Source: Phormidesmis sp.
GTDB taxonomy: Bacteria > Cyanobacteriota > Cyanobacteriia > Leptolyngbyales > Leptolyngbyaceae
Assembly (NCBI GenBank): GCA_965248535.1
Contig: CBDFJR010000002.1
Location: 704,001-768,000 of the forward strand
Length of the DNA stretch: 64,000 nt
Direction: 5' to 3'
Under the pieces are notes generated by a model that worked only from the letters and a program-made list of their open reading frames with translations, was not told where the DNA came from and did not search any database. Both the position numbers and the translations under genes were made by a program. Positions 13,590-29,464 of the stretch are shown here, piece by piece. Each line of letters starts with the position of its first letter. Within the stretch, counting starts at the first letter, position 1.

Positions 13590-14333
13590 ATGAAACGTCT
13601 CTTTACAGGGATGACCGACACGGGTTTGATCCGTGCTGCTAACCAAGATGCCTATCATCTCGACCCAGATGGGCGTTTTTTTATTGTGGCAGACGGTATG
13701 GGAGGTCATGCAGGCGGGCAAGAGGCGAGTCGTTTAGCAACCCAAGCGATCCAGTCTTGTTTAGACATCAGTTGGGACTCAACCATTCCCTCGCAAGACC
13801 TGCTAGAAAAATCGCTCTTAGAGGCAAATCAGGCGATTTTAGCAGACCAAAGGCAGCACCCAGAGCGATCGGACATGGGCACAACGGTCGTCGTCGTCAT
13901 TTTTCGCGATGAACAGCCGCTCTGCACCCACGTTGGAGATTCTCGCCTCTATCGTCTGCATGGCTCAAAACTAGAACAACTGACCGAAGATCATACCTGG
14001 GTAGCACGGGCGATGCGTTTGGGAGAGATCACCCCCGATCAAGCCCGAACCCACCCCCTCAGACATGTGTTGGCTCAGTGTTTGGGGCGAGAAGACCTCC
14101 AGCAAATCGAGGTGAAATCGCTCTCTGTGCAGCCTGGCGATCGTCTTCTCCTCTGTAGCGATGGCTTAACCGAAGAACTCTCTGATCAGCTAATCACCAA
14201 TCAGCTTAAATCGATTCGAGTCTGTGACAAGGCCGCGTCTGCTCTCATCCAGGCGGCCAAAGATCACGGTGGACGAGATAACATCACCGTCGTCATCGTG
14301 GCGATCGAGGGTCTGTCCCGCAGCGACTATTGA
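13590..14333 (+). CDS. PP2C/PPM Ser/Thr phosphatase (PphA-like)
   Basis: NQDA, VADGMGG, MGTT, HVGDSR, LCSDGL and GGRDNIT motifs. Confidence 0.95.
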   Translation: MKRLFTGMTDTGLIRAANQDAYHLDPDGRFFIVADGMGGHAGGQEASRLATQAIQSCLDISWDSTIPSQDLLEKSLLEANQAILADQRQHPERSDMGTTVVVVIFRDEQPLCTHVGDSRLYRLHGSKLEQLTEDHTWVARAMRLGEITPDQARTHPLRHVLAQCLGREDLQQIEVKSLSVQPGDRLLLCSDGLTEELSDQLITNQLKSIRVCDKAASALIQAAKDHGGRDNITVVIVAIEGLSRSDY

Positions 14334-14557
14334 GCACACCTCCGACGAAACTGTTTATCTCAGACATCTTGAGAAAACCTCATCATGCCGCCCTCAGTTA
14401 AAGGACTTATCTAATCAATCAGTCCTCAATTTGTGGCGGCTGCTACTAAACTAGCTGTCAATTTGTCACAACGCACACCGTTCTCAAGCTCCTCTCTAAG
14501 GAGGTATAGTCCCTTTATTCAAGTAAGCCGACTGGGGTATGGTCGTTTTGTCAAATA

Positions 14558-14575
14558 CTTGTTATCTTTTGTAAT
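14558..14575 (-). promoter_or_regulatory. Imperfect HLR1-like (RpaB) direct repeat upstream of nblA
   Basis: Minus strand ATTACAAA-AG-ATAACAAG resembles (G/T)TTACA(T/A)(T/A)-N2 repeats. Confidence 0.35.
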
Positions 14576-14707
14576 AAGAAATGGATAGATTGATTGATTC
14601 TTAGGGTATCTTTGAACAATCAACCGAGTCCAACCAGAATCTACCCACGACCTCCCAAGTCGATGATTCTGCGACTCACCCTACTCTCTCTTACACTGGA
14701 GTTTGTT

Positions 14708-14905
14708 ATGAACCAACCTGTAGAACTGTCCTTGGAGCAAAAATTTAGCATCCGATCGTTTGAAACACAAGTTGAGAAGATGAGCCACGAGCAAGCTCAA
14801 GACTTTTTAATCAAGCTCTACGAGCAAATGATCATGCGTGAAACGATGTATCGTCATTTCCTCAAGCATCAGTGGGGCTTAGAGCCTAACCCCCAAATGC
14901 CCTAA
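14708..14905 (+). CDS. nblA: Phycobilisome degradation protein NblA
   Basis: MNQPVELSLEQKFSIRSFETQVEKMSHEQAQDFL...FLKHQWG. Start at ATG 14708. Confidence 0.95.
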   Translation: MNQPVELSLEQKFSIRSFETQVEKMSHEQAQDFLIKLYEQMIMRETMYRHFLKHQWGLEPNPQMP

Positions 14906-15198
14906 GTTCTGCTCAAGCCATTGGGCGACCTCGATCTCTCGCTTTGTTCTAAGCCAGAAAGAAGCTAGGGTGCTGGGGCGTTCAGCCAAGCTCGTGTTAA
15001 AAAACAGTAAGTTTGACTCCTGAATTCTTTTTTGATAGTTGTGCTTTCGCTTCAGAGCAAACTATGGAAATTTCAACTGATTCGCGCCTTAGACTTTTGC
15101 ACACTGGTAGGCGCTGAGACCCACCACCGCTCACTACAGTGCTGAGTCATCTCTCTAGGGTTGACTCCTAGCGCAGGCTCTTAATCATCACGTCCGTT

Positions 15199-16326
15199 TC
15201 AGTGCACTTGATAGCGCATTCCGGGGAGCTGTGAAACGAGTCCCAACATTTCTAACTGGATTAATGCCCCTGACACTGAGCCTGCTGGCATTTCAGTTTG
15301 TTGGACGATCGCGTCAAAAGCCGCCGCCTCGACCTCACCACCTTGAACGATCGCTTTCACCGACTGCAACACTTGACTGAGGTCAGCGCTGAGATCAAGT
15401 AAAGATAACTGTGTCTCTTCCATCACGGGGTAGTCTAGCTGAGGCATCGTTCCAAGCATTTCCAGCAGTTCTGCTTCTCCTAAGATCATTTGTGCGCCTT
15501 TGCTGATCAGAGTGAGACAGCCCTTCGATTTGAAATTGTCTAAACTGCCGGGCAGGGCATAGACATCTCGCCCATAGTCATTAGCGAGATAGGCGGTAAT
15601 CAGAGAACCTGACTTTTGAGGAGCCTCAAGCACCAAGACAGCGCGACACAGCCCCGCCACAATGCGATTTCTGCGAGGGAAGTGGGTGCGATCGGGCTGA
15701 GTTCCGGCCGGATATTCGCTGATAGCCAACCCATTTTCTAGCACTTCTTGATAAAGGCGGCGATTTGTCCAGGGATAGACGACATCAACGCCAGTTCCGA
15801 GAACAGCGACGGTTTTGCCCCCAGACTCAATGCAGTTGCGGTGGGCTTCGCTGTCGATGCCGTCTGCTAACCCAGAAACGACGATAAAGCCGTTTTGGGC
15901 TAGAGCAGAGCTAATTTTGCGCGTCCAGCGTCTGCCATAATCTGAGGGATCACGAGTGCCGACGATGGCGATCGCAGGCAGAGTGCCTAGATCTTTGACT
16001 AGATTAGAGTCGCCGCGATAATACAACACCGGGGGCGGGTCAGGAATTTCTCGCAGCAATCGAGGATAGTCAGCCTCGGCCGGAGTCCAAAAGTGCTCGT
16101 TTTTCTGCTCGTGGTCTTGCAAGAGGCGATCGGGCTGACACTTGGCTCGCTGGGGCAGAAATTCCCCTATAGTTTGGTTTCCAATTCCTTCGACTTCGAT
16201 TAACTCCTTGGGGCTGGCTTCCCAAGCTAATGCCAAGCTGCCAAAATGCCGATATAGTCGCTTAATCAGCACCGGGCCAATGCCCGGAAGTTGCGACCAT
16301 GCCAGCCAAAACGCACGTTCCTCCAA
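15199..16326 (-). CDS. dprA: DNA-processing protein DprA
   Basis: PDPPPVLY, AIVGTR, VSGLADGID, FPRRNRIVAG and C-terminal LIQLEMLG. Confidence 0.96.
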   Translation of the reverse strand: MEERAFWLAWSQLPGIGPVLIKRLYRHFGSLALAWEASPKELIEVEGIGNQTIGEFLPQRAKCQPDRLLQDHEQKNEHFWTPAEADYPRLLREIPDPPPVLYYRGDSNLVKDLGTLPAIAIVGTRDPSDYGRRWTRKISSALAQNGFIVVSGLADGIDSEAHRNCIESGGKTVAVLGTGVDVVYPWTNRRLYQEVLENGLAISEYPAGTQPDRTHFPRRNRIVAGLCRAVLVLEAPQKSGSLITAYLANDYGRDVYALPGSLDNFKSKGCLTLISKGAQMILGEAELLEMLGTMPQLDYPVMEETQLSLLDLSADLSQVLQSVKAIVQGGEVEAAAFDAIVQQTEMPAGSVSGALIQLEMLGLVSQLPGMRYQVH

Positions 16327-16399
16327 TTTCCCGTCCTCACGTTCAGGTGATTCTCGGTCAAGTGTTCCCTTAATTTAACCGTGATGAATAAATTTTTGG

Positions 16400-17077
16400 T
16401 TAGTCTACTGCTTTAAATAAAAGCGTGTAGAGATAACTGATAGATTCAGAAATAACGATTTTTACGCCTGCACTTGAAGTCCACCAGCGGCGAGAGTCAT
16501 AGTCTAGATCGCTGGCTGCAATAATGCCGACTTTAACAGGATCTAGAGCCTGTTGGTAGAGTAGCTGACTTCTTCTTGCATGAACTCCATCTGTATAAAG
16601 ATTGACTGATTGAAGGGTTGATTTTGACTCAGTTAACCACTGCCTCACGGCGATCGCGTTGGCATAGGTGCGATCGCGAATCACATATTTAGCCGGAACG
16701 GCCACTAGGTGAGCAGGGTCGAACCCGATCGCCACCAAGGTTGCCGCAGAAAGCTCTGCATAGGTTTTATATTTAGCCAGATAAAAGCCTCGCGGCACCG
16801 CCCCGCCCGTTGTGATCAGAGTTTTATAGCCCCCTGTTTTAAATTCTGCAATCGCTTTTTCAACGCCTTCATCGGTCAGCCAGCCTTCAACAACTAGTGC
16901 ATCTGCTTTCACTGGGGCAGTCACCGCTAAAAAGGAATGGATGTTGACTAGAATTCCCAGCCACAAACCAGTCAAAAAAACGAGACTTAAGATCCAACCT
17001 TGGGCGGTTAGCACCCACTTTTCTCGACGGCAAAAGAGCGGAAGCTTAATTTTTGGAAATCGCTGACTTTGAGGCAT
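16400..17077 (-). CDS. YdcF/DUF218-family protein with N-terminal TM helix
   Basis: DALVVEGW, LITTGG, DRTYANA and HARRS motifs. Start probably ATG 17077. Confidence 0.7.
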   Translation of the reverse strand: MPQSQRFPKIKLPLFCRREKWVLTAQGWILSLVFLTGLWLGILVNIHSFLAVTAPVKADALVVEGWLTDEGVEKAIAEFKTGGYKTLITTGGAVPRGFYLAKYKTYAELSAATLVAIGFDPAHLVAVPAKYVIRDRTYANAIAVRQWLTESKSTLQSVNLYTDGVHARRSQLLYQQALDPVKVGIIAASDLDYDSRRWWTSSAGVKIVISESISYLYTLLFKAVD

Positions 17078-17732
17078 TATTTCTGAGGTGCTGCGAGTGC
17101 AAATATTCAAACACGCTCTTATCACCAATATCCGGAGGAATGGGTTGGATGACTTTACGAATGGCAAACACCATAAATAGAACAGCCCAAACTCCCAGCA
17201 AAAATCGCTCCCACTGAGGCAACAAGAAACCTGTCAGATGTCCCAAAAGCAAGATCGGAATCAACGGCGTGAGAAGCTTGGTTTCTAAACGATCAAAGCA
17301 AAATGCCTCTTTAAAAAAGATTCCGGTCAAGGCTGCAAAACCAAAGCCAACCCCAAAAATGGTCAATGGATAGCTGTAGATATAGAGCGCAAGCGGCTCA
17401 GACCCTCTGACTGCAAAAATCAGCGAGGCGATGCCTCCGATCGCCCAAAATGCTTGCAGTGTTTGGTGCAAGGGCTTTAGATAAATATGAATGGTGAACA
17501 AACTCACGCCTAACCCAACCCAAAAAACCAGATAAAGCAGCGTCAGCGTGTTGAGAATAACCGGGTCAGTTCCCTTCCAGAGCACTAGGGCAGTCGCGAT
17601 CGCGAAGCTCAAGGCTGCTACCAGCAACCCACCCCGATAGATAATCACTCCACGGCGATCGTGGGAGTCGATCGTAAACTCGCCAAACTGTCCCTGATAA
17701 ACCTCTGGTTCGGTCATGTGCAGTTGAGTCAT
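17046..17732 (-). CDS. DUF2301-family membrane protein
   Basis: YQGQFGEFTI, IHIYLKPLH, FKEAFCF and DIGDKSVF motifs; multiple TM helices. Confidence 0.8.
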   Translation of the reverse strand: MTQLHMTEPEVYQGQFGEFTIDSHDRRGVIIYRGGLLVAALSFAIATALVLWKGTDPVILNTLTLLYLVFWVGLGVSLFTIHIYLKPLHQTLQAFWAIGGIASLIFAVRGSEPLALYIYSYPLTIFGVGFGFAALTGIFFKEAFCFDRLETKLLTPLIPILLLGHLTGFLLPQWERFLLGVWAVLFMVFAIRKVIQPIPPDIGDKSVFEYLHSQHLRNNASKSAISKN

Positions 17733-17763: not shown

Positions 17764-18003
17764 CTACTGTGCTTCTGCCTGTTGCGCCTCGTCTTCAAGG
17801 GTTTGAATGGCTACCAGCAACTCTTCTTCTTGACTCTCAAATTCTTCTTCAGGAATGTCGCCCATGTCGAAGGCCAACTGCAAGGCCAATAGGCGTTTTC
17901 CTAAATTTTCTTTGTCATCTAATTCAGTGTCGGCTCGTTCTTGAATTTGTTCGGCGATCCAGGCAAGTCCGGTGACGGGGGCAAACAGTAGGCGAAATAT
18001 CAT
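17764..18003 (-). CDS. gvpG: Gas vesicle protein GvpG
   Basis: APVTGLAWIAEQI...LQLAFDMGDIPEEEFESQEEELL, in the gvp cluster. Confidence 0.9.
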   Translation of the reverse strand: MIFRLLFAPVTGLAWIAEQIQERADTELDDKENLGKRLLALQLAFDMGDIPEEEFESQEEELLVAIQTLEDEAQQAEAQ

Positions 18004-18008
18004 AGGAT

Positions 18009-18752
18009 TTAGTTCAGCCGTTCAAACTGGGCGAAGTTGTAGGGAGCCGTAAAGTCGTTGTAGCGAATCTTTAAGCGCTGGTCAAACTGCTGATCCAATG
18101 CTTCGACCTGGGCACTAAAGGTGGCTTCTTCATCCCAATGAATCAGATAAGCCGCGTTATAAATCATCGCTTCGGTGAGCAAATCGTTTTCGACCACTTC
18201 GACCGCGAGGGAGTTGAGACTTGATTGAAATGCCTCAATAATTTGGCGTTTGCGATCGCTCATTGCCCGCTCGATCGCTTGCCCGATCGCCACAATTTCA
18301 TCCATGCTCAGAGATTTGCCCTCTAAGCGATCGCGCCGCTCTCGCAGATCAGGATCGTCTGCCATCAGCGCTTGAAGCTCTGTGTCTGCATCCCAAAACA
18401 GTTTGACGCTCACCTCACGCCGCCCGTTCAATCGTTGAAACAGCACTTCTAACGTTTCACTATGGGGAGCCGTCAACTGCTCAGTCACCGTTTCCCAATC
18501 TTCAATGATCAGCCCAAACTGAAGGGGCAAGAGAGTCCGATGACCTGCGTGCATGGCTTGTTCTAAGACTTTTTCGTGCCCTAGCAGATTTCGACGACTG
18601 GCTAAGTATCGGTCTTGTTGCGCTTCTGAATAGAGAAACGTGAACCCATCGACAATGCGCGTTTGCACGGGTTGACGATCGAGTCCTTCTAAGGCTAAAT
18701 CTTCGGGGCCGGGGGTGGGAAAAATGCCGTACAGATAAAGTCTGGGGGTCAT
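18009..18752 (-). CDS. gvpF: Gas vesicle protein GvpF/GvpL family
   Basis: LYLYGI, HEKVLE, LLPLQFG and APYNF motifs. Confidence 0.88.
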   Translation of the reverse strand: MTPRLYLYGIFPTPGPEDLALEGLDRQPVQTRIVDGFTFLYSEAQQDRYLASRRNLLGHEKVLEQAMHAGHRTLLPLQFGLIIEDWETVTEQLTAPHSETLEVLFQRLNGRREVSVKLFWDADTELQALMADDPDLRERRDRLEGKSLSMDEIVAIGQAIERAMSDRKRQIIEAFQSSLNSLAVEVVENDLLTEAMIYNAAYLIHWDEEATFSAQVEALDQQFDQRLKIRYNDFTAPYNFAQFERLN

Positions 18753-18772
18753 AAAAATAGGGGCTAGGGGGC

Positions 18773-19228
18773 TTAGATTGGCTTTGCTGTTAGAACTAGC
18801 TGAAGCTTTGCGTGGATCAAATCTAACTGGGCCACTCCGATGTCAACGCTGCCTTCGAGCACAACGCCTGTGTTGAGAAGACGATCGAGCAATTCTAAAA
18901 TAGAAGGGCTGGCAGAGGTTTGACCCGGATAGTATCCTCCCGCTTTGGGTAATAGCGTGCCCACTTCGCCCAAGTCAATATTCAAATCGGCGGGATTGAT
19001 CTCAAAAATGTCGCAGATCTCAACCACCTGTTCTTCTAGCTTTTGCAGACTTATAGAGGCGCGATCGAGTTCTTCATCCGTGAGTTTTTCTTCTTCCATC
19101 CGCCGAATGATTTGAGCTTCCATTAACTGCCGAACTAGCTCGACCACTGTTAATAAAAGTGGAGCAAGACCCGCATCTTTACTCGATTTAGGCGCATCAA
19201 CAAAGGTCTTAGTAGGAAGATCTGTCAC
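18773..19228 (-). CDS. gvpK: Gas vesicle protein GvpK with C-terminal GvpA-like segment
   Basis: GLAPLLLTVVELVRQLMEAQ, DLNIDLG and LLDRLLNTGVV motifs. Confidence 0.92.
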   Translation of the reverse strand: MTDLPTKTFVDAPKSSKDAGLAPLLLTVVELVRQLMEAQIIRRMEEEKLTDEELDRASISLQKLEEQVVEICDIFEINPADLNIDLGEVGTLLPKAGGYYPGQTSASPSILELLDRLLNTGVVLEGSVDIGVAQLDLIHAKLQLVLTAKPI

Positions 19229-19270
19229 TCGTTTTCTCGGCTGTAATGTCCTCTCATTTTATGGGATCGC

Positions 19271-19465
19271 CTACAAGCTTCTGTCTAAATACAGTTGATG
19301 GAGCCATTGACGACGATCTTGTTGAGCGCGAAGCTGGGCAACTCCCGCAGAGATGCGGGCCCGATCGCTGCTTCTCAAAGACAGTCGGCTGAGTCGATTG
19401 ACCGCCTGACCACTGGCAATCACGCGGCTTGTTGCAATCTGCTTCATCGTTTTGACGGTGATCAT
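19271..19465 (-). CDS. Small basic helical protein (64 aa) between gvpJ and gvpK
   Basis: Its ATG overlaps the gvpJ stop (ATGA at 19462-19465) and it fills the gap to gvpK. Confidence 0.6.
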   Translation of the reverse strand: MITVKTMKQIATSRVIASGQAVNRLSRLSLRSSDRARISAGVAQLRAQQDRRQWLHQLYLDRSL

Positions 19466-19863
19466 AAATCTCCCAAAAGTGACTCAAGGGTGCTGGGGCT
19501 AGATTCGATCAGTTCTTTTGGGGAGGCGGGACGGAGCGATCGTAGCTCCGTTTCTAAACTCTCAACTCGCTCCATCAGTTGGCGGTTGGCATCTAGCAGC
19601 GTTTGAGACTGTTGACTAAAGTGCGGATTGTTTTCCCACCAGTTGATCCCCATTTCTCGCGCTTTATCAACTGACGCAATTAGTAGACGAATCCGAATAT
19701 TAATCAGTTCAGTCGTGGCTACCGAAATCGAGATATCGCCCGCGATCACGATGCCTTTATCTAGCACCCGCTCTAGCACGTCTGCCAACGTCGAACCTTG
19801 AGTTGACGTGGACATCGCCCTAGATGCGTCTCGTCCCATTTTGATCGGCGTGGTGGCGGTCAT
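19462..19863 (-). CDS. gvpJ: Gas vesicle protein GvpJ
   Basis: [21 protein letters not shown]...[22 protein letters not shown] overlap with gvpN. Confidence 0.93.
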
Positions 19864-21116
19864 GGTTTCACCTCGATCGGAACGGGTTGAGCCACAAATA
19901 AGCGATCGTTCTGCATCACTTGCCCTTTTTTGACCAAAATCCGAATCGCTTCGAGGGCTTGCAGCCGCGTCAAACCTAGATCGCTCTCAATCTGAGAAAG
20001 CTTAACGCCCTCTGATTTCAGCAGATATTGGTAGATGTCTTGTTCATAGTCAACCAACTCACGAGCCGCGCTGGGCGTGACTTCGGTTTCTAACTCAGTC
20101 AGTTCTCGAAAAAGTTCAGCGAGTTGCTCTTGAACGATCAAATCAGGAGTCGGAGTGGTGTCTGGGAGCGGCTTGAGCGCAGCCCCAAAGGAATCGGTGA
20201 CCAGCGTCTGTTTAGGAACGTCTATCAAGTCGTTGTGAATCAGGTCATTGAGCAGTTGCCACAGAATTTTAGTTGCCTCGTCGATCGGGATCGTGATCCG
20301 CGACAGCAAGATATCTGAGCAAATTTCTCGGAAATCAACATCCGTAGGTGAAACGGCGATCGTGTGCTCTTTGCAGACCTTGCCGATCACCAGACACGAT
20401 CTCAACCCAGAAATTTTGTCTCCCTGAGTTTTGGTGCGAAACGCCTTGACTAATCGCACAATCAACAGCGCACTGACGCGATCGATCTCGGTTTTTTGCA
20501 CCACGATCTCTTGCTGAGTTAGCTCATCAGGTTCTGGCATACTGATCGTCACCAGCCGATCCATCAAGGCATCTTGAGTAGCGTGCACCCCGTAATACTC
20601 TTCAGGATTAGAGGTGAGAATGGCGCGAAAATTCGGATCAACTCGAATATATTCGGTCTGATTGCTGCTTGGCGGCAACACCAAAAGCTTTTCTTCTAGA
20701 GCCGACAGCAACACATTGTTCACTTCAGGTCTAGAACGATTGAATTCGTCATAAATCAGGGTGAATCCTTCTCGACACGCCAGCGTCAAGCGAGAATCGA
20801 CCCAGTTTTGCCGCAGTTCGTCTTCAACTTTAATAACACTGTGAATGTAGTTATCGACGACTTTTTTGCGCGTGTAGCCAGACTGAGACCCAATTAAATC
20901 AGAACTCTTGGCCTCATCGTCGCCAAAAACCAGCATGATCGGGCGAGTCAACAGGTCTGCGAGGTGAAGCGCTAGCGTTGTCTTGCCCGTTCCGGCTGGG
21001 CCGCGGAGGTGGACTGAAAAACCAGATTGAAGATAGCGCAACGCTCGAATCGTAATCCGATCGATGGCGGGAGTGCTCACAAATCGGCGGGGGCTGGCAC
21101 GAAGAACGGTAGTCAC
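19860..21116 (-). CDS. gvpN: Gas vesicle AAA+ ATPase GvpN with extra C-terminal wHTH-like domain
   Basis: [24 protein letters not shown] and TQDALMDR motifs. GTG start at 21116 follows an AAGGA RBS. Confidence 0.95.
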
Positions 21117-21131
21117 GGGCAATCATCCTTG

Positions 21132-22310
21132 TCAAACAATAAAGTCTTCTTGAATTCGATAAACGCGATCGCGCTGAGTCACTAACCCTTTTTGCAGCAG
21201 CGATCGCAGCGTATCGACTACTTGAAAACGGCTAATTCCCATCGCTGACTCGATTTCAGTCAACCGAACCCCCTGCATCACCTCAATGTATTGATAAATT
21301 TTTTCCTCAAAAGCCGGATCGCTAATCGCGTTGATAGCAGGCTTGACCTCAGCCAGAGAAGCGGGTTGAGGCGTTTGAGTTGCAGGGCGGCTAACGGCTT
21401 TTTGCGCTGGTTTTTGCCCGATCGTTATGGGGGCGATCGCGGTCGGTGCCGGGCGAGTGGACAAAGCGCTTAAACCAGAAGACGACTGACGAGCAACAGG
21501 CTCAGAGGTCAGATCATGAGAAGCATCGTCTCCCCAAACCGTGCTTTTTAGCTCGGCTCGATAGTGGCGAAGCTGCGATCGAAAGTCTTCTAACCGCGAA
21601 AACAGAACGCGATGCTCGGTTTCTCGGTCAAGACGGCTCTGATCAAGGGTTTCAGCTAGCCGTGCAGCTTGCTCATGCCGCGCAGTTTGCACATCTGATA
21701 AATAATGGTGCACTTCAAACCGCAGATTCTCTGTAAAAGCCGCAAGATTGCGAGTCAGACGAATCTGAATTTTGAGGCGCTGCTGCCGACCTTGAGATAA
21801 GAGAGAATGCGTTTCTAGCTGCAAGTCTTGAATCTCTGCTTGAACATCTTGCCTCAAAGCCGTGACGGTTTCGTCAAGAACTGCCCGAAAGGTTTGCAGG
21901 TCGTCTGCCAATTGTTGAGCCATCATCTGCCGATCGGCTTCGGCGACGGTCAAAAAATCGGCTGTTTGATCCTGAAGTGCCTGGACAAATTCACGCAGTT
22001 GACTTGCGACTCGCTGAGATTGAGAGTGACGACGATCGCTGACGGTGGTGAGAAAGTCTTGAATCTCGCGGTGCCGTTCCATGCAGTGTTGCTGTAATTC
22101 TACAGAGAAGCGTTGAAATTCTATTGTGCGATCACGATCGGCACTGGCAAGCGTGACGCGAACTTGGCTGAGATCGCTACGCAGCGCAGAGGCAGACTCT
22201 TGACGGTCTTTTTGAACGATCGTCAGGGTCTCAAAAACCTGTTGGCGGCGTTGAGTAGCTTCGTGCTGGCGTTGCTGGCGTTGCTGCTGCCAGGAATCTT
22301 TCAAAGCCAT
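21132..22310 (-). CDS. gvpC: GvpC-like protein with degenerate 33-aa repeats, Pro/Ala linker and C-terminal wHTH-like domain
   Basis: Lies between gvpA and gvpN. Q/R-rich helical repeats with DFL recurring at 33-aa spacing; the repeat region ends in STVWG. Confidence 0.8.
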   Translation of the reverse strand: MALKDSWQQQRQQRQHEATQRRQQVFETLTIVQKDRQESASALRSDLSQVRVTLASADRDRTIEFQRFSVELQQHCMERHREIQDFLTTVSDRRHSQSQRVASQLREFVQALQDQTADFLTVAEADRQMMAQQLADDLQTFRAVLDETVTALRQDVQAEIQDLQLETHSLLSQGRQQRLKIQIRLTRNLAAFTENLRFEVHHYLSDVQTARHEQAARLAETLDQSRLDRETEHRVLFSRLEDFRSQLRHYRAELKSTVWGDDASHDLTSEPVARQSSSGLSALSTRPAPTAIAPITIGQKPAQKAVSRPATQTPQPASLAEVKPAINAISDPAFEEKIYQYIEVMQGVRLTEIESAMGISRFQVVDTLRSLLQKGLVTQRDRVYRIQEDFIV

Positions 22311-22352
22311 GATGGTGGGCTTCCTTATTAAATCTGGCGGTTACTCATGCTG

Positions 22353-22382
22353 AAAAACTGAGGAGCAAGTCTGCCCCCCAGT
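22353..22382 (-). terminator. Stem-loop plus U-tract directly after gvpA (partial terminator or mRNA stabiliser)
   Basis: Minus strand ACTGGGGGGCAGACTTGCTCCTCAGT-TTTT. Confidence 0.6.
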
Positions 22383-22397
22383 CGTTAGGATCGATCC

Positions 22398-22616
22398 CTA
22401 GCTTGCAGGAACGGCTGCTTGAGAGGTCAAACCGACTGCTTCTGCATATTTCAAGTAGGTTTCGACGGATGCAATCACGACACGAGCCTCGATCGCCAAT
22501 AGCTCAATGCCTACGAGAGAGACGCGAACCCAAGCATCAATGACAATGCCTTTGTCAAGAATGCGATCGACCACTTCAGCCAGACTAGACGAAGAGTTTA
22601 CTTTTTCAACAGCCAT
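22398..22616 (-). CDS. gvpA: Major gas vesicle structural protein GvpA
   Basis: [40 protein letters not shown]...YLKYAEAVG, 72 aa from ATG 22616. Confidence 0.98.
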
Positions 22617-22887
22617 GGTTGTAATTCCCTGAGAGTGCGGTGATTTTAATCGGCCTAGCCTTCGCTTTAGACTTGCTTCAGAGGTTTCGGCTTCTACTGT
22701 TAAGGTAAGCTTCACATCCCCCAAACTCGCATAGCGCAAACACTGAACCTACCGAGGTAAGCTTTTCGATAAGTAGCGAAATCACTGACTCTTTTCGTTT
22801 GATTCCAATCTCAATTCTCACTTTTCACCGATTGCTTAAGCTCAGTGCAGGTATTTTCAACGAGAAACCCCCTACTGATTTATCTAG

Positions 22888-24708
22888 CTAAGATGAACCA
22901 GTCCGACGCTGACTGAGCAGGGTTTGATAAGCCGCCATAAAGTCAGCCATTGTGATTTGAATGCAAAGCGGGTCGGTTAGCCCTTGGGTGCGATAACGAC
23001 GAATGGCTTCTAGCGCCGCTTGGTTGCTGAGAAGGGCCAAGTCTGCACCGTTCCAGCCTGTGGTTTGATGCGCTAGGCTCGTTAAGTCAACGTCTGCGAG
23101 GGGACGATCGCGGTTATGAACTTGCAAAATCGATCGCCGACTCGTTTCATCTGGCAAGTCTACTTTTAGCTGAAGATCAAGCCGTCCGGCTCTCAATAGG
23201 GCTGGATCGATCGCGTCAGGGCGGTTGGTGGCTCCGATCAGCAGTACATCCACACAGGCTTGCAGACCATCTAGCTCTGTCAAGAGTTGACCGACCACCC
23301 GATCGCTCACGCCAGAATCGCCATTAAATTTTCCGCGCACCGGAGCTAACGTATCAATTTCGTCAATAAAAATTACGCAGGGAGAAGCTTGGCGCGCTTT
23401 GGCAAAGAGGTCTCTCACCTCTTGTTCGGCTGCGCCCACCCAGCGACTTAACAACTCAGCCCCGTTGATGGCGATAAAGTTGGCTCTGGCTTGAGACGCG
23501 ATCGCTTTAGCCAGCAATGTTTTTCCAGTTCCTGGCGGACCCCACAGCAAAATTCCACGAGGAGCCTTTGCGCCTGTCTGCTGATAGAGTTCGGGATACA
23601 GCAACGCCCCTTCGACCGATTCTTGCAGGGTTTGCTTAATGTCTTTTAAGCCACCAATTTCATCCCACGAGAGATTGGGCGACTCGATTTCGACCGATCG
23701 CAGCACCGAGGGTTTTATCTCTCTCAGAGCGTGCAGAAAGTCAGATGGCTCGATTGTCATCACCTCTGGGAGCGGCGCTTGAAGTGACGGCACTTGCCGA
23801 CGCAGCGCGGTGTAAGCGGCTTTCTGGCAGACTGCTTTGAGATCAGCGCCCACCATGCCCACGGAGAGATCGGCGATCGTGCCCAAGTCTACGGCTCGAT
23901 CGAGCGGCATTGCACGAGTGAGAATCGTGAGAATCTCTAGCCGCCCGTTGCGATCGGGCACCCGATATTGCACTTCACGATCAAACCGACCCGGCCGACG
24001 CAATGCCGGATCGAGATGATCGGGGCGGTTGGTGGCAGCCAGCACGATTACGCCTTCGGTGCGCGCAAAGCCATCCATTAACGTCAGCAGTTGGGCAACG
24101 ACGCGCTTTTCGACTTCGCCTTCGACTTTGCTGCGATCGGGGGCGAGACTGTCTATTTCATCAATAAAAATCAGGCAAGGAGCCGCTTTTGCAGCTTTCT
24201 CAAACACGCCTCGCAAGCGCGTTTCGGCCTCTCCGTAATATTTGCCCATGATTTCCGGCCCGGCGATCGCGATGTAGCTCACGCCCAATTCTTCAGCTAA
24301 AACGCGAGCCGTCAAGGTTTTTCCAGTTCCCGGCGGGCCGACCAGCAAAACGCCTTTGACCGCTTCTAACCCCAGCCTCGCCAACAAATCAGGACGCTTG
24401 AGAGGAATCTCAATCAGTTCTTTGAGTTCTTTCATGACCTCTCCCAATCCCCCCACATCCTTTAAAGAAGCCGGGTTGTCTTGACTGGGAGGAGTCACCA
24501 CCACCTCTGGCTCTTTAACCGAGGCGGCATCGTCTACTCGGATGCGACTCACGCCAACACTGCTGGGACTATTGCCCCGACGCGGAATGCTGCTGAGATG
24601 GCGGGAATTAATCTGAATATCCGTCTTGAGTTCTCCCTTCTCAGCTTTTTCTTCTAACGCTTTAGCTAGTTCTAATAACTGCTCGAACCCTTTAAAAAAA
24701 TCACTCAT
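22888..24708 (-). CDS. Cdc48/p97-like tandem AAA+ ATPase lacking the usual N-domain
   Basis: Two GPPGTGKT Walker A and two FIDEID Walker B motifs, ATNRP, RRPGRFDRE and RAGRLD. Start probably ATG 24708. Confidence 0.9.
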   Translation of the reverse strand: MSDFFKGFEQLLELAKALEEKAEKGELKTDIQINSRHLSSIPRRGNSPSSVGVSRIRVDDAASVKEPEVVVTPPSQDNPASLKDVGGLGEVMKELKELIEIPLKRPDLLARLGLEAVKGVLLVGPPGTGKTLTARVLAEELGVSYIAIAGPEIMGKYYGEAETRLRGVFEKAAKAAPCLIFIDEIDSLAPDRSKVEGEVEKRVVAQLLTLMDGFARTEGVIVLAATNRPDHLDPALRRPGRFDREVQYRVPDRNGRLEILTILTRAMPLDRAVDLGTIADLSVGMVGADLKAVCQKAAYTALRRQVPSLQAPLPEVMTIEPSDFLHALREIKPSVLRSVEIESPNLSWDEIGGLKDIKQTLQESVEGALLYPELYQQTGAKAPRGILLWGPPGTGKTLLAKAIASQARANFIAINGAELLSRWVGAAEQEVRDLFAKARQASPCVIFIDEIDTLAPVRGKFNGDSGVSDRVVGQLLTELDGLQACVDVLLIGATNRPDAIDPALLRAGRLDLQLKVDLPDETSRRSILQVHNRDRPLADVDLTSLAHQTTGWNGADLALLSNQAALEAIRRYRTQGLTDPLCIQITMADFMAAYQTLLSQRRTGSS

Positions 24709-24862
24709 TGGCTCATAGCGCTCTACGCAAAATGGGTTGATCAAAGAATCTCGATCGCCGTCTCCTTTCAGCCCGAAGCATGGGGAAACCTAAGATCAAG
24801 TGTTCCCCGAAAGACTTTTCCGAGATCCTTCTCCCTGTTGCAGACCTTATCAAAGCGCCCTT

Positions 24863-26758
24863 ATGAACCAATTTGACTCGCTGAATCTCGTCATGTTTAG
24901 CGGTAAAGGAGGAGTCGGAAAAACAACGATCTCCTGTGGGTTTGCTCGACGATGGGCAAAACAGTTTCCTGACGAAAAGATTTTGCTGCTGTCTACCGAT
25001 CCGGCTCATTCTCTAGGGGATGTGCTGCAACTAGAAGTCAGCAATGCTCCGCAGTCAGCCCAAGATTTGCCTAACTTAAGCATTAGGGCGCTAGATGCCG
25101 AAGTGCTGCTGCAAGACTTTAAAACGCTCTATGGAACCGTGCTAGAACTGCTGGTGGAGCGAGGCAGCTTTGTTCAAAAAGAGGACTTGTCGCCGATTTG
25201 GGATTTGAGTTGGCCTGGGCTTGACGAACTCATGGGCATTTTAGAAATTCAGCGATTGCTGCGAGAAAAAGTCGTCGATCGCGTCGTTGTAGACATGGCT
25301 CCTAGCGGCCACACATTAAATCTCTTCAGCTTGATGGATTTTCTAGATGAATTTTTGGCCGCCCTGGCGCTATTTCAAGAAAAGCATCAAGTGATTCGTC
25401 AGACTTTCACAGGGCGCTACACGTCAGATGAGGCCGATCAGTTCTTATCAGAGATGAAATCAGATCTCGCAAACGGGCGGCAACTCCTGCAAGATCAAAC
25501 CCAAACCGCCTGCTTAGTGGTCGCGATCGCTGAGTGGATGAGTCTCTTAGAAACTAAGCGATTTCTAGAGGCGCTAGAAGTGCTTCACATTCCCTTCGGG
25601 GGCTTGTTCATCAATCAAATTCTGTCGCCCACCAGCAGCGCCGAGCCATACGGCGATCAGCAGCACATTATTGTTAAGTTTCTCGATTTGATCAGATCCG
25701 AGCCAGTTCTGATCTCCTTTCAACAGCCTTCAGAGCCGATCGGGGCGGTGGCGATCGACCAATTAATCAGCCAAGTCCAGATCCCAGATACGCCATCTTC
25801 TCAGCTAGTTTCGCAACCGACTGAGTTTCCCCAACCCCTTTCACCGGGTCTGGGAGACTTTATAGCCGAAGGTCGGCAACTGATCATCGTGGGTGGAAAA
25901 GGCGGAGTGGGCAAAACGACGGTAGCGGCAGCGATCGCTTGGGGCATGGCACACCAGCATCCTGAAAAGAACGTTCGGGTGATCTCGATCGATCCGGCTC
26001 ATTCCTTAGGCGACGCACTGGGAACTCAGCTTGAACATTTGCCGACATCCGTGACCGCAAATCTGAGCGCTCAAGAAATCGATGCTCATCAAGTTCTTGA
26101 ACAATTTCGAGAAGACTATCTCTGGGAACTTGCAGAGATGATGAGTGGTGAATCTAGCACAGCAGACAGCAGCCTCAAGATTGCCTATGCCCCAGAAGCG
26201 TGGCGAAGAATCGTTTCTCAAGCACTTCCAGGCATTGACGAAATGCTGTCTCTGATTAGAGTCATGGAGTTATTAGAGTCTAAAGAACAAGATTTAATTG
26301 TTCTAGACAGCGCTCCTACTGGGCATTTGCTGCGATTTTTAGAAATGCCAACCGCTCTGGGTGACTGGTTGTCGTGGATCTTTAAACTGTGGATCAAATA
26401 TCAAGACGTGCTGGGACGCACAGAGTTAATGGGGCGGCTCCGCACTCTGCGCCAGCGAGTGATGCAGACTCAAAAAAAGCTGAAAGACCCTCAGCACACA
26501 GAGTTTATTGGTGTGTTTCAGTCACGATCGGCGATTGTTGCCGAAACAAAACGACTCTCAGACTCTCTGACAACCCTGGGCATTAGCCAGCGCTATCTAG
26601 TCAACAATCGGTGTGAACCAGAGAATCTGATTTCGGCGAGTCTTTTTCCGAGTCAAGCGATCGTGCATTTGCCCCGGCTGCCGCGCTCAATTCCTCCCGC
26701 CGAACAGGTTGCAGGAGCCGCTCATCTGCTTTTCTCTAAGATTGACGATAATCGATGA
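24863..26758 (+). CDS. Tandem ArsA/Get3 (TRC40)-family ATPase
   Basis: Two GKGGVGKTT and two DPAHSLGD motifs, plus DMAPSGH and DSAPTGH. Start probably ATG 24863. Confidence 0.9.
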   Translation: MNQFDSLNLVMFSGKGGVGKTTISCGFARRWAKQFPDEKILLLSTDPAHSLGDVLQLEVSNAPQSAQDLPNLSIRALDAEVLLQDFKTLYGTVLELLVERGSFVQKEDLSPIWDLSWPGLDELMGILEIQRLLREKVVDRVVVDMAPSGHTLNLFSLMDFLDEFLAALALFQEKHQVIRQTFTGRYTSDEADQFLSEMKSDLANGRQLLQDQTQTACLVVAIAEWMSLLETKRFLEALEVLHIPFGGLFINQILSPTSSAEPYGDQQHIIVKFLDLIRSEPVLISFQQPSEPIGAVAIDQLISQVQIPDTPSSQLVSQPTEFPQPLSPGLGDFIAEGRQLIIVGGKGGVGKTTVAAAIAWGMAHQHPEKNVRVISIDPAHSLGDALGTQLEHLPTSVTANLSAQEIDAHQVLEQFREDYLWELAEMMSGESSTADSSLKIAYAPEAWRRIVSQALPGIDEMLSLIRVMELLESKEQDLIVLDSAPTGHLLRFLEMPTALGDWLSWIFKLWIKYQDVLGRTELMGRLRTLRQRVMQTQKKLKDPQHTEFIGVFQSRSAIVAETKRLSDSLTTLGISQRYLVNNRCEPENLISASLFPSQAIVHLPRLPRSIPPAEQVAGAAHLLFSKIDDNR

Positions 26759-26933: not shown

Positions 26934-28016
26934 ATGACAACTACGATTCAAAGACGCGAAAGCGCCAACCTGTGGGAGCAGTTTTGCTCTTGGGTCACCA
27001 GCACCGACAACCGCCTGTATGTAGGCTGGTTCGGGGTTCTGATGATTCCCACCCTACTTTCTGCGACCATCTGCTTCATCATCGCGTTCATCGCAGCGCC
27101 TCCTGTAGACATCGACGGCATCCGCGAGCCAGTAGCCGGTTCCTTAATGTACGGCAACAACATCATCTCCGGTGCTGTGGTTCCGTCCTCTAACGCCATT
27201 GGCTTACACTTCTACCCGATTTGGGAAGCCGCATCCTTAGACGAGTGGCTGTACAACGGCGGACCTTACCAACTCGTGGTTCTGCACTTCCTGCTCGGCA
27301 TCTTCTGCTACATGGGACGTGAGTGGGAACTGTCCTACCGACTCGGCATGCGTCCGTGGATCTGCGTCGCTTACTCCGCACCTGTGGCGGCTGCAACGGC
27401 GGTCTTCTTGATCTACCCGATCGGACAAGGGTCTTTCTCGGACGGCATGCCCCTCGGCATCAGTGGCACGTTCAACTTCATGTTAGTGTTTCAAGCCGAG
27501 CACAACATCTTGATGCACCCCTTCCACATGTTGGGAGTCGCTGGAGTCTTCGGTGGTAGCTTATTCAGTGCCATGCACGGTTCGTTGGTGACCTCCTCGC
27601 TAGTGAGAGAGACGACCGAGAACGAATCGCAGAATGCAGGCTACAAGTTTGGGCAAGAAGAAGAGACCTACAACATCGTGGCAGCGCACGGCTACTTCGG
27701 TCGGTTGATCTTCCAATACGCGTCGTTTAACAACTCACGTTCCTTGCACTTCCTGCTCGGCGCATGGCCAGTCGTAGGCATCTGGTTCACGGCACTGGGC
27801 GTGAGCACGATGGCATTCAACCTGAACGGGTTCAACTTCAACCAGAGCATCATCGACTCTCAGGGTCGAGTGGTGAGCACCTGGGCAGATGTGATCAACC
27901 GTGCCAACTTGGGGATGGAAGTGATGCACGAGCGGAACGCTCACAACTTCCCTCTAGATTTGGCATCGGGAGATGCGGCACCTGTCGCACTCTCTGCGCC
28001 TTCCATCCACGGATAA
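26934..28016 (+). CDS. psbA: Photosystem II D1 protein (Glu130, high-light D1:2 type)
   Basis: 360 aa canonical D1 with [10 protein letters not shown] and [13 protein letters not shown]. Confidence 0.99.
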
Positions 28017-28045
28017 TCTCAGCTTCGGTTGAGTGAGTCTGAATC

Positions 28046-28079
28046 AAAAAAGCCCTCCACATCGCGTGGAGGGCTTTTT
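28046..28079. terminator. Bidirectional intrinsic terminator between psbA and miaB
   Basis: AAAAAAGCCCTCCAC-ATCGC-GTGGAGGGCTTTTT. Confidence 0.9.
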
Positions 28080-28096
28080 AGGTTTTTTAATCTGAT

Positions 28097-29464
28097 CTAA
28101 GGCTGTAGACAAGCTGTAACTAAGGGTTCTGCGGTGAGGCTGAACGATCGTACCTGAGTGATTTTGACTTTAACTAACTGGCCTCTTAGGTTGCTGATAT
28201 CCCCTGCAAAAAAGGTGAGACGATTGCCACGAGTGCGTCCCATGACTTGAGTCGGATCTTTAAGATTTTGATCTTCGACTAAGATCTCTTCAACCCGATC
28301 GTGATATCGCTGCGATCGCTCTGCTGCTTGAGTGCTGCCCAGATGATTAATGCGTTGCAGTCGGTCTTTTTTTACGTCTTCACTTAGCTGATTGTCCCAA
28401 AGGGCGGCTGGGGTGCCGGGTCGAGGCGAGTAGGCGGCAGTGTTGATCAGGTCGAAGCCGATGTCTTCAATTAGCTTGAGGGTGTTTTCAAATTGGGCTT
28501 CGGTTTCGCCAGGGAACCCCACGATCGCGTCGGCACTGATGGAGGCATCGGGCATATAGCTGCGAATGGTTTCAATAATGCGGCGATATTTTTCGTGGGT
28601 GTAGCCCCTTGCCATTGCTTTGAGGAGATCGTTGTCACCGGACTGAAAGGGAATGTGAAAGTGTTCGCAGACTTTGGGCAGTTCGGCACAGGCGCGGATC
28701 AGGCGCTCGGTGAAGTAGCGAGGATGACTAGTGGCAAACCGAATGCGATCGATGCCTGGCACGTCGTGAACGTGGTAAAGCAAATCGGTCAGGGTGTTTT
28801 TGTGTCGTCCTTCGGGGGTGGTTCCGGGCAAGTCGCGACCATAGGCATCGATATTTTGCCCTAATAGGGTGATTTCTTTGTAGCCTTGTTGCCCCAATTC
28901 TTCCATTTCGGCTCGAATCGCGTCGGGGGTGCGAGATTGTTCGACTCCGCGCACGCTGGGAACTACGCAGTAAGTACAGCGCTCGTTGCAGCCGTAGATG
29001 ACGTTGACCCAGGCGCTAACGCGGCTGTCACGGCGGGGTTTGGTGATGTCTTCAACAATGTGAATGGGGTCGGTGGCGACGACTTGGTTGCCGTTAAACA
29101 CTTGCTCTAACAGGTCTTCTAGACGGTTGGCGTGTTGGGGGCCCATTACGAGGTCGAGTTCTGGAACGCGGCGCAAGAGGGTTTCGCCTTCTTGTTGGGC
29201 GACACATCCCGCCACGATTAACGTGAGGTTGGGATTTTCGTGCTTGCGGGCGGCTTGTTTGCCCAGGTGAGAATAAACTTTTTGCTCGGCGTTGTCGCGA
29301 ATTGAGCAGGTGTTATAGAGAACGAGATCTGCATTGAGGGCTTCTTCTGTCCACTCGTAGCCCATGACTTCTAGGATGCCAGCCATGCGCTCGGAGTCGG
29401 CTTTGTTCATCTGACATCCGAAGGTGGTGATATGGTAGCGGCGACGATCGGGCATGGGGTTCAA
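28097..29464 (-). CDS. miaB: tRNA-i6A37 methylthiotransferase
   Basis: TFGCQMN, NTCSIR, radical-[11 protein letters not shown] and a TRAM domain. Confidence 0.97.

Follow-up and report, generated by a model that had tools for sequence, protein, structure and literature searches.

A Cdc48-like double AAA+ ATPase that accompanies the gas-vesicle genes of cyanobacteria

The gas-vesicle block and its two ATPase genes

The DNA analysed here (the window) is a stretch of 64,000 nucleotides from Phormidesmis sp., a cyanobacterium of the Leptolyngbyaceae (contig CBDFJR010000002.1, positions 704,001 to 768,000). Window positions 17764-26758 hold a block of gas-vesicle (gvp) genes together with two ATPase genes, a Cdc48/VAT-like double-AAA+ gene, here called type A, and a tandem ArsA/Get3-like gene. 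The gvp genes and the double-AAA gene all lie on the minus strand, the former in the order gvpA-C-N-J-orf64-K-F-G. A gap of 271 base pairs (bp) separates gvpA from the double-AAA gene, and the two ATPase genes share a divergent region of 154 bp between their start codons (24709..24862). The original prediction, made from the sequence letters, had described this gene order, both gaps and both ATPase genes, all of which lie where it placed them.

The type A protein (22888..24708, minus strand) has 606 residues and no N-domain, and its homologues begin at the same methionine. It scores 651 bits with TIGR01243, below the cut-off of 803 and covering only model positions 173-676, and its best match in the PDB is VAT (5vc7), the VAT/p97 alignment extending over residues 78-571 with an E value of about 1e-169. 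Two PF00004 stretches with their lids form the tandem classical D1-D2 arrangement; D1 begins near residue 80, and the N-terminal double-psi-barrel adaptor domain is absent. In both rings the Walker A/B, arginine-finger and aromatic pore-loop motifs of such motors are intact, and they are conserved over 69 rows, 59 of them type A and 10 type B. The C-termini are variable, and the HbYX proteasome-docking motif, as it is usually defined, is not conserved.

The protein starts with a conserved 48-residue arm (24565..24708, minus strand), seen in the alignment as an amphipathic helix (hydrophobic moment 0.46-0.49) and a motif of the SSIPRxGNIP type, which tracks the presence of gvp genes. When an arm profile was searched against 1.84 billion representatives, 35 matches were obtained; among the 16 examined, 14 were members or fragments of this family, two were unrelated repeats and none was an Hsp20. 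Cyanobacterial copies of the ATPase form one clade with support 100 (the first tree omitted 24 rows removed by a motif filter). Type B is a subclade of 10 rows nested inside it (support 99) with a different N-terminus; it is kept in genomes without gas vesicles, and no gvp gene was present in any of the type B loci fetched. The arm is a specific marker separating the gas-vesicle form from its free paralogue. The source genome itself has a type B paralogue on another contig (C5:2175556-2177373), 75% identical over the AAA part and with the other N-terminus, whose neighbours are a YbjN-family gene and a DUF2267 gene, with no gvp gene among them.

The ArsA/Get3-like gene (24863..26758, plus strand) encodes 631 residues with two fused nucleotide-binding domains, each with a P-loop (at 14 and at 345). 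The protein scores above the cut-off of the GET3/ArsA/TRC40 model TIGR00345 (339 bits, cut-off 135) and fails the arsenite-pump model TIGR04291 (185 bits, cut-off 650). Its top PDB sequence match is algal ArsA1, and its predicted model, with a predicted template-modelling score of 0.83, finds bacterial ArsA structures as top fold matches. All three metalloid cysteines of E. coli ArsA, which we take to be residues 113, 172 and 422, align to residues other than cysteine. The only cysteines are C25, C217 and C584, and conservation across rows is confined to 25 and 217. The zinc-binding CxxC dimer hook of Get3 is absent; such a hook is expected to be dispensable in fused forms. As for the hydrophobic client groove of Get3, long helices at 148-183 and 190-210 align with ArsA1. 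The context is not an ars operon, since the neighbours are the AAA gene and, directly after the ArsA-like gene, what is presumably a copy of psbA.

The shell-protein gene gvpA (22398..22616, minus strand, as are all the following) reaches 137 bits with NF006874 (cut-off 100). A 12-bp hairpin with a U-run lies just 3' of it (22356..22383); its z of only -1.44 is weak alone, and it is a possible attenuating terminator. The next gene encodes a divergent GvpC (21132..22310), in which a helical region of 33-residue period (residues 1-260), a low-complexity linker and a winged helix were delineated from the period and a low-confidence single-sequence model. The period is clear (z 5.3, shuffle maxima averaging 2.5), and the position directly after gvpA is that of cyanobacterial GvpC. 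With PF01304 the protein reaches 7.6 bits (E 4.3), under the Pfam cut-off; its close homologues are named GvpC, and one of them matches PF01304. GvpN (19860..21122; TIGR02640, 387 bits, cut-off 267) combines an AAA+ ATPase, a linker and a C-terminal winged helix. It is followed by gvpJ (19462..19863; PF00741, top NCBIfam match NF046090), gvpK (18773..19228; PF05121), gvpF (18009..18752; NF052351, cyanobacterial GvpF, 386 bits, cut-off 350) and gvpG (17764..18003; PF05120, 89 bits). Between gvpJ and gvpK an open reading frame encodes a basic protein of 64 residues (19271..19465) that belongs to no family and gave no match in Pfam. Four homologues were found in the fetched loci, every one 3' of gvpJ and with a conserved N-terminus. 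Homologues of gvpV and gvpW are encoded far from this block, on a different contig (C5:690238-690501 and C5:525682-526344). The flanks of the block (13590-17167 and 26934-29464) are ordinary, with a PP2C phosphatase, nblA, dprA, a DUF218 gene and a MiaB-type radical SAM gene.

Co-occurrence and linkage with gas-vesicle genes

A sample of 251 genomes drawn across the class gave full-length double-AAA matches in 138, gvpN in 131, gvpF in 130 and the ArsA-like gene in 101. Two genomes (G070 and G131) were removed from the gvp set, their gvpN matches being partial, 46-47% identical and unaccompanied by any GvpA-family match in a search that did give matches elsewhere. Of the genomes that remained, 131 have gvpN or gvpF, and every one of these contains the ATPase; seven contain the ATPase alone and 113 contain neither. 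The seven comprise four with type B only, G015 with an arm-less copy, and G191 and G052 with type A. After G088, whose locus is decaying, was also removed, 130 genomes counted as having intact gvp markers; type A was present in all 130 of them and in 2 of the 121 others. Scored by the arm profile, 129 genomes had both arm and gvp, two the arm only, one gvp only and 119 neither (phi 0.98); in the single gvp-only genome, G026, the arm carries an insertion. Five rows of the arm profile came from genomes of the same sample, a circularity that does not affect the full-length search.

A further 61 genomes, all of one order and 14 of them already in the first sample, gave the arm in 11 of 11 gvpN genomes. 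The single extra arm match came from a genome lacking gvpN (G615, locus L185), where a decayed remnant of 41 codons is left. In G088 (locus L183), gvpF, a gvpK remnant and broken pieces of arsA remain, and neither gvpA nor gvpN was found there. Presence is mixed within families f1, f4, f5, f9, f11, f15, f16 and f30, and both markers occur in the same genomes. Type A decays where gvp is lost and stays where it is unlinked from gvp.

The association is not a matter of neighbourhood. Among the 118 genomes with listed coordinates, type A lies less than 10 kilobases (kb) from gvpN in 33 and on the same contig but far away in 16; in the rest it is on another contig. Physical hitchhiking therefore does not explain the co-occurrence. 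Where the genes are close, arrangements recur. Of 80 loci fetched with the double-AAA protein, gvp genes stood in the flank of 17 of the 54 belonging to the cyanobacterial clade and of 0 of the 26 others. A plasmid of Nostoc sphaeroides, 36 kb long, reads gvpA-A-C-N-J-K-F-V-W-arsA-AAA, and in G144 and G026 the gene immediately upstream of the AAA gene is gvpV. The original prediction had placed the two ATPases outside the Anabaena-type gene set; this cannot be upheld, as both lie 3' of the gvp block in Anabaena azotica, Dolichospermum, Raphidiopsis and the Nostoc plasmid. Its suggestion that Serratia gvpY and gvpZ are AAA+ and ArsA-like genes could not be verified: PMC4982088 gives them as of unknown function, and AAA and ArsA are absent from its main text and the three supplements searched.

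All 101 ArsA-positive genomes of the first sample carry the AAA gene, and the two lie within 10 kb of each other in 50 of 94 genomes. Some lineages have the two genes in divergent orientation, and Nostocales have them in tandem; divergent gaps of 94-476 bp recur in many loci. Inside the 154-bp region of the window no sigma-70-like site was called by a promoter scan, which was uninformative. Among 69 metagenome arsA loci, 28 contain the AAA gene and 15 contain gvp genes. In the first sample the ArsA-like gene occurs in 100 of the 130 gvp genomes and, outside this set, in G052 alone; it was not found in the remaining 30, including 20 of the 21 of family f5.

For type A and the ArsA-like gene alike, then, gvp linkage was found and occurrence without gas vesicles was far from equal, so that a gas-vesicle-related role is well supported. 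It is very probable that the double-AAA gene acts in gas-vesicle biology at all. A competing account is that lifestyle selects for both traits together, the ATPases serving general proteostasis in motile or planktonic cells with no action on Gvp proteins. Type B and the three type A or arm-less copies that persist without gvp fit such an account, as do the many archaeal loci, without relation to gvp, in which an Hsp20-like gene immediately precedes cdc48 (L064-L081, L103). It is hard to reconcile with the matched presence within at least eight families, the decay with gvp loss in G088 and G615, the plasmid module and the placement of Cdc48 inside alphaproteobacterial gvp operons, and we regard it as very unlikely.

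Winged-helix tails and the origin of the arm

GvpC and GvpN both end in a winged helix-turn-helix, at 21147..21311 and 19887..20048 respectively (minus strand). With the TrmB profile of Pfam, whose cut-off is 25.6 bits, the GvpC tail alone reaches 26 bits and the GvpN tail, which also matches the tail profile, 30 bits. The two are 43% identical over 51 residues (pairwise E 4e-16), which bears out the original prediction that these proteins carry matching C-terminal modules. A search of the PDB gave a single match, 1sfx (E 0.004), and an Atlas search gave only leads below 0.9 for the tails and nothing for the type A arm.

The tail profile matches 83 of the 251 genomes, 62 of them twice, and all 83 are gvp-positive. 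The tail is thus present in 83 of the 130 gvp genomes, and in the other 47 the motor is present with no match to the tail profile. Families f4 and f5 gave zero matches, every gvp-positive genome included. In these families (G003 and G095 are examples) gvpN, gvpF and the AAA gene lie hundreds of kb apart and are all kept, and GvpN is short, about 300 residues, and tail-less. Tail and ArsA-like gene are uncoupled as well: 25 gvp genomes have the ArsA-like gene without a tail match, and 8 have the tail without the ArsA-like gene. Since the tails are uncoupled from both ATPases and restricted to a subset of lineages, they cannot be an obligatory tag for the motor. The winged helices would rather be protein-docking tails of that subset. 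With the parts distributed over 130, 100 and 83 of the 130 gvp genomes, a single integrated machine is not supported. Of the dedicated delivery, turnover or positioning machinery that was originally proposed, the gas-vesicle-linked role stands, and neither the single integrated machine nor a required delivery step does.

These distributions bear on two further explanations. One is that the motor takes hold of GvpC by its C-terminal winged helix and pulls it off intact vesicles, so that collapse pressure falls and buoyancy is actively switched off. There is a precedent in ClpXP, which removes GvpC carrying a degron tag from vesicles that stay intact, with a drop in their collapse pressure (accessible part of PMC9501494); moreover, the tail sits on a long low-complexity linker, and every genome with a tail has gvp genes. 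However, the 47 gvp genomes with motor and no tail match, among them all gvp-positive members of f4 and f5, and the presence of the same tail on GvpN make such regulated weakening improbable. The other explanation is positioning, in which the ArsA-like P-loop ATPase and the winged helices would place vesicles on the nucleoid, much as ParA-type systems position other organelles. Weak ParA/MinD matches and the helix-turn-helix signature of the tails speak for it. Against it, the fold is that of ArsA/Get3, the ParA model scores 57 with a cut-off of 180, the tails carry little net charge (-3 to +1 in 16 of 17 rows), and tails and ArsA-like gene are uncoupled; of the explanations considered here it seems the least probable.

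Gas-vesicle-linked Cdc48 genes were also found outside cyanobacteria. A full-length CDC48 stands at the end of the plasmid gvp clusters of Methylosinus and Methylocella and inside the operon of G399, each time with a GvpH/Hsp20 gene. The three alphaproteobacterial gvp-linked copies fall outside the ordinary alphaproteobacterial Cdc48 clade. A single origin of all gvp-linked Cdc48, the cyanobacterial clade included, is at most tentative, with an SH-like approximate likelihood ratio support of 95 in a quick tree and 93/94 in a careful tree in which the G399 copy was unplaced. Of 351 Pseudomonadota genomes sampled, a single one had gvpN, which gives no basis for comparing co-occurrence across phyla. 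Between GvpH/Hsp20 and CDC48 the methanotroph plasmid clusters encode an unannotated protein of 185-193 residues (L173:11080-11661, L174:16663-17220); the L173 copy gave no match in Pfam.

The arm of type A may have its source in such clusters. A likeness to the N-terminal arm of the G399 Hsp20 was first seen by eye, and the profile comparison that followed is post hoc. The arm profile matched the GvpH/Hsp20 family (121 members) with a probability of 43%, an E value of 2.4e-4 and a score of 26.8 over 28 columns. Column shuffles averaged 11.4 +/- 2.2 with a maximum of 19.5 in 100, and ten other profiles from gvp loci scored no more than 17.5. In the reverse search three type A arms were top among the loci, at no more than 12 bits with the short profile. 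These sequence comparisons suggest that the arm may descend from the N-terminal arm of GvpH/Hsp20 of other gvp clusters, and the archaeal loci with Hsp20 upstream of cdc48 make an origin by deletion and fusion plausible.

Other affinities of the arm were rejected: all profile scores for a GvpG-, J-, K-, F-, A-, C-, N- or winged-helix-like identity were at or below 17.5, and comparison of its SSIPR with the N-terminal STMPR of GvpV gave a non-significant probability of 1.9%. GvpV proteins (L102:8612-8926 and other loci) have an N-terminal K[ILV]S[ST]MP motif resembling SSIPR, and nearly all end in tyrosine.

Predicted role and comparison with known systems

VAT/Cdc48 hexamers thread polypeptides through their pore, and their N-domain normally binds adaptors. 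We lean towards the view that the type A ATPase is a dedicated unfoldase for the quality control or recycling of gas vesicles. Vesicle proteins that are mis-assembled, aggregated or collapsed would be pulled apart by the motor, to be reused or degraded, and the arm would replace the N-domain as the module that finds the Gvp client or its adaptor. The ArsA/Get3-like protein could be an optional member of this pathway, a holdase that uses ATP and acts on hydrophobic segments of Gvp proteins. Prediction of a complex between the ArsA-like protein and the Cdc48 arm, run without controls, scored 0.00 and has no weight either way.

The role is predicted from genomes, and several points weigh against this view. 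Vesicles form without these genes, from gvpA plus gvpNJKFGWV in HEK293T cells and from the PCC 7120 cluster in E. coli (accessible parts of PMC10344784 and PMC7204071), although both hosts have unfoldases of their own and the vesicles in E. coli were irregular or too few for phase contrast. Intact type A is present in G191 (99% complete, 280 contigs) and G052 (96%, 350 contigs), neither with a GvpA-family match, G015 retains an arm-less copy without gvp, and type B shows that the motor can serve without vesicles. The counts ignore kinship among genomes, and kin are not independent. Outside haloarchaea and cyanobacteria, two of four plasmid gvp clusters have no CDC48 within 12 kb. The likeness of the arm to Hsp20, at a probability of 43%, is modest, and the reverse search left the arm of the window outside the top 25 of its own genome.

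A role in assembly or delivery was also considered, the Get3-like ATPase delivering hydrophobic GvpA/J to the growing shell and the Cdc48-like motor driving or resetting the assembly complex; both would then be needed for normal vesicle growth in the native host. Like the core gvp genes, type A occurs in every one of the 130 gvp genomes, and the ArsA-like protein passes the GET3/TRC40 model with algal ArsA1 as its best PDB sequence match. In the accessible parts of PMC10344784 and PMC7204071, moreover, heterologous Anabaena vesicles in E. coli are weak or irregular. However, human cells form vesicles from a gvp set that lacks these genes, and the PCC 7120 cluster makes E. coli float, which implies that type A is probably not required for assembly and leaves the required delivery of the original prediction unsupported. 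The ArsA-like gene is also missing from the matches of 30 of the 130 gvp genomes, nearly all of f5 among them, and GvpN is already an ATPase tied to elongation in the accessible literature. An assembly role therefore appears rather unlikely.

A bolder form of the unfoldase reading is that cyanobacteria carry a dedicated ATP-driven disassembly machine, a Cdc48 motor fused to the client-binding arm of GvpH that dismantles shells or their GvpC coat on demand. We think this doubtful. If it were true, the loss of buoyancy in bloom-formers would be an active, enzyme-controlled step, and the motor gene would belong to the gas-vesicle core, from which it has so far been missing.

The depth at which bloom-forming cyanobacteria float is set by their gas vesicles, on which acoustic reporter genes are also based. 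Type A tracks gas vesicles as tightly as gvpN and gvpF and is a direct target for knockout. It could likewise be tried as an addition to gvp sets expressed in foreign hosts, where 10 of 15 mined clusters failed to yield detectable vesicles and the authors point out that genes from outside the annotated operons may be needed (accessible part of PMC10344784).

In the literature searched, outside which most subscription papers lie, no link of cyanobacterial gvp genes to a Cdc48-like ATPase or to winged-helix tails was found. The link between ArsA and gvp is published: Castillo and Saier (2010; accessible part of PMC2963123) placed two-domain ArsA homologues in gvp clusters and proposed that they energise a step of biogenesis. 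The type A Cdc48-like gene is the strong part of the present findings, and the three modules are separable. What they add to an organelle system already known is a real accessory layer that the papers searched do not name; nor do their cluster descriptions name the type A gene.

The ArsA homologues of clusters 4 and 6 in that paper, from Anabaena variabilis and Nostoc PCC 7120, resemble the protein of the window in their size of about 637 residues, two domains, gvp context and lack of arsenite cysteines. The main text of the paper does not mention cdc48, whereas the ArsA-like gene studied here is nested within Cdc48-bearing genomes and usually adjacent to the motor gene. With Chlamydomonas ArsA1/Get3 (5zme) and E. 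coli ArsA (1f48) it has in common the fused pseudo-dimer and the P-loop and switch motifs; it differs in having no metalloid cysteines, no CxxC and no known client.

Cyanobacterial GvpC (PF01304) has the same position between gvpA and gvpN, the 33-residue period and the helical character of the window protein, which nevertheless falls below the Pfam cut-off. Haloarchaeal GvpC also has a C-terminal globular domain in the accessible literature, but the tail in the window is a winged helix common to GvpN and not a zinc finger.

GvpH/Hsp20 of haloarchaea and proteobacteria (PF05455, PF00011) is described in the accessible literature as a non-essential chaperone that prevents aggregation of GvpM. 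The likeness of its N-terminal arm to the Cdc48 arm covers the first 28 residues of the latter, but the alpha-crystallin domain of GvpH/Hsp20 is absent from the type A protein, and the homology is suggestive only. The closest known relatives of type A are Thermoplasma VAT, Cdc48 and p97 (5vc7, 5g4f, 5g4g), with the same tandem D1-D2 and the same Walker, arginine-finger and pore-loop motifs. Where these have an N-domain, type A has an arm of 48 residues, no conserved HbYX motif, and a cyanobacterial clade of its own that is tied to gas vesicles.

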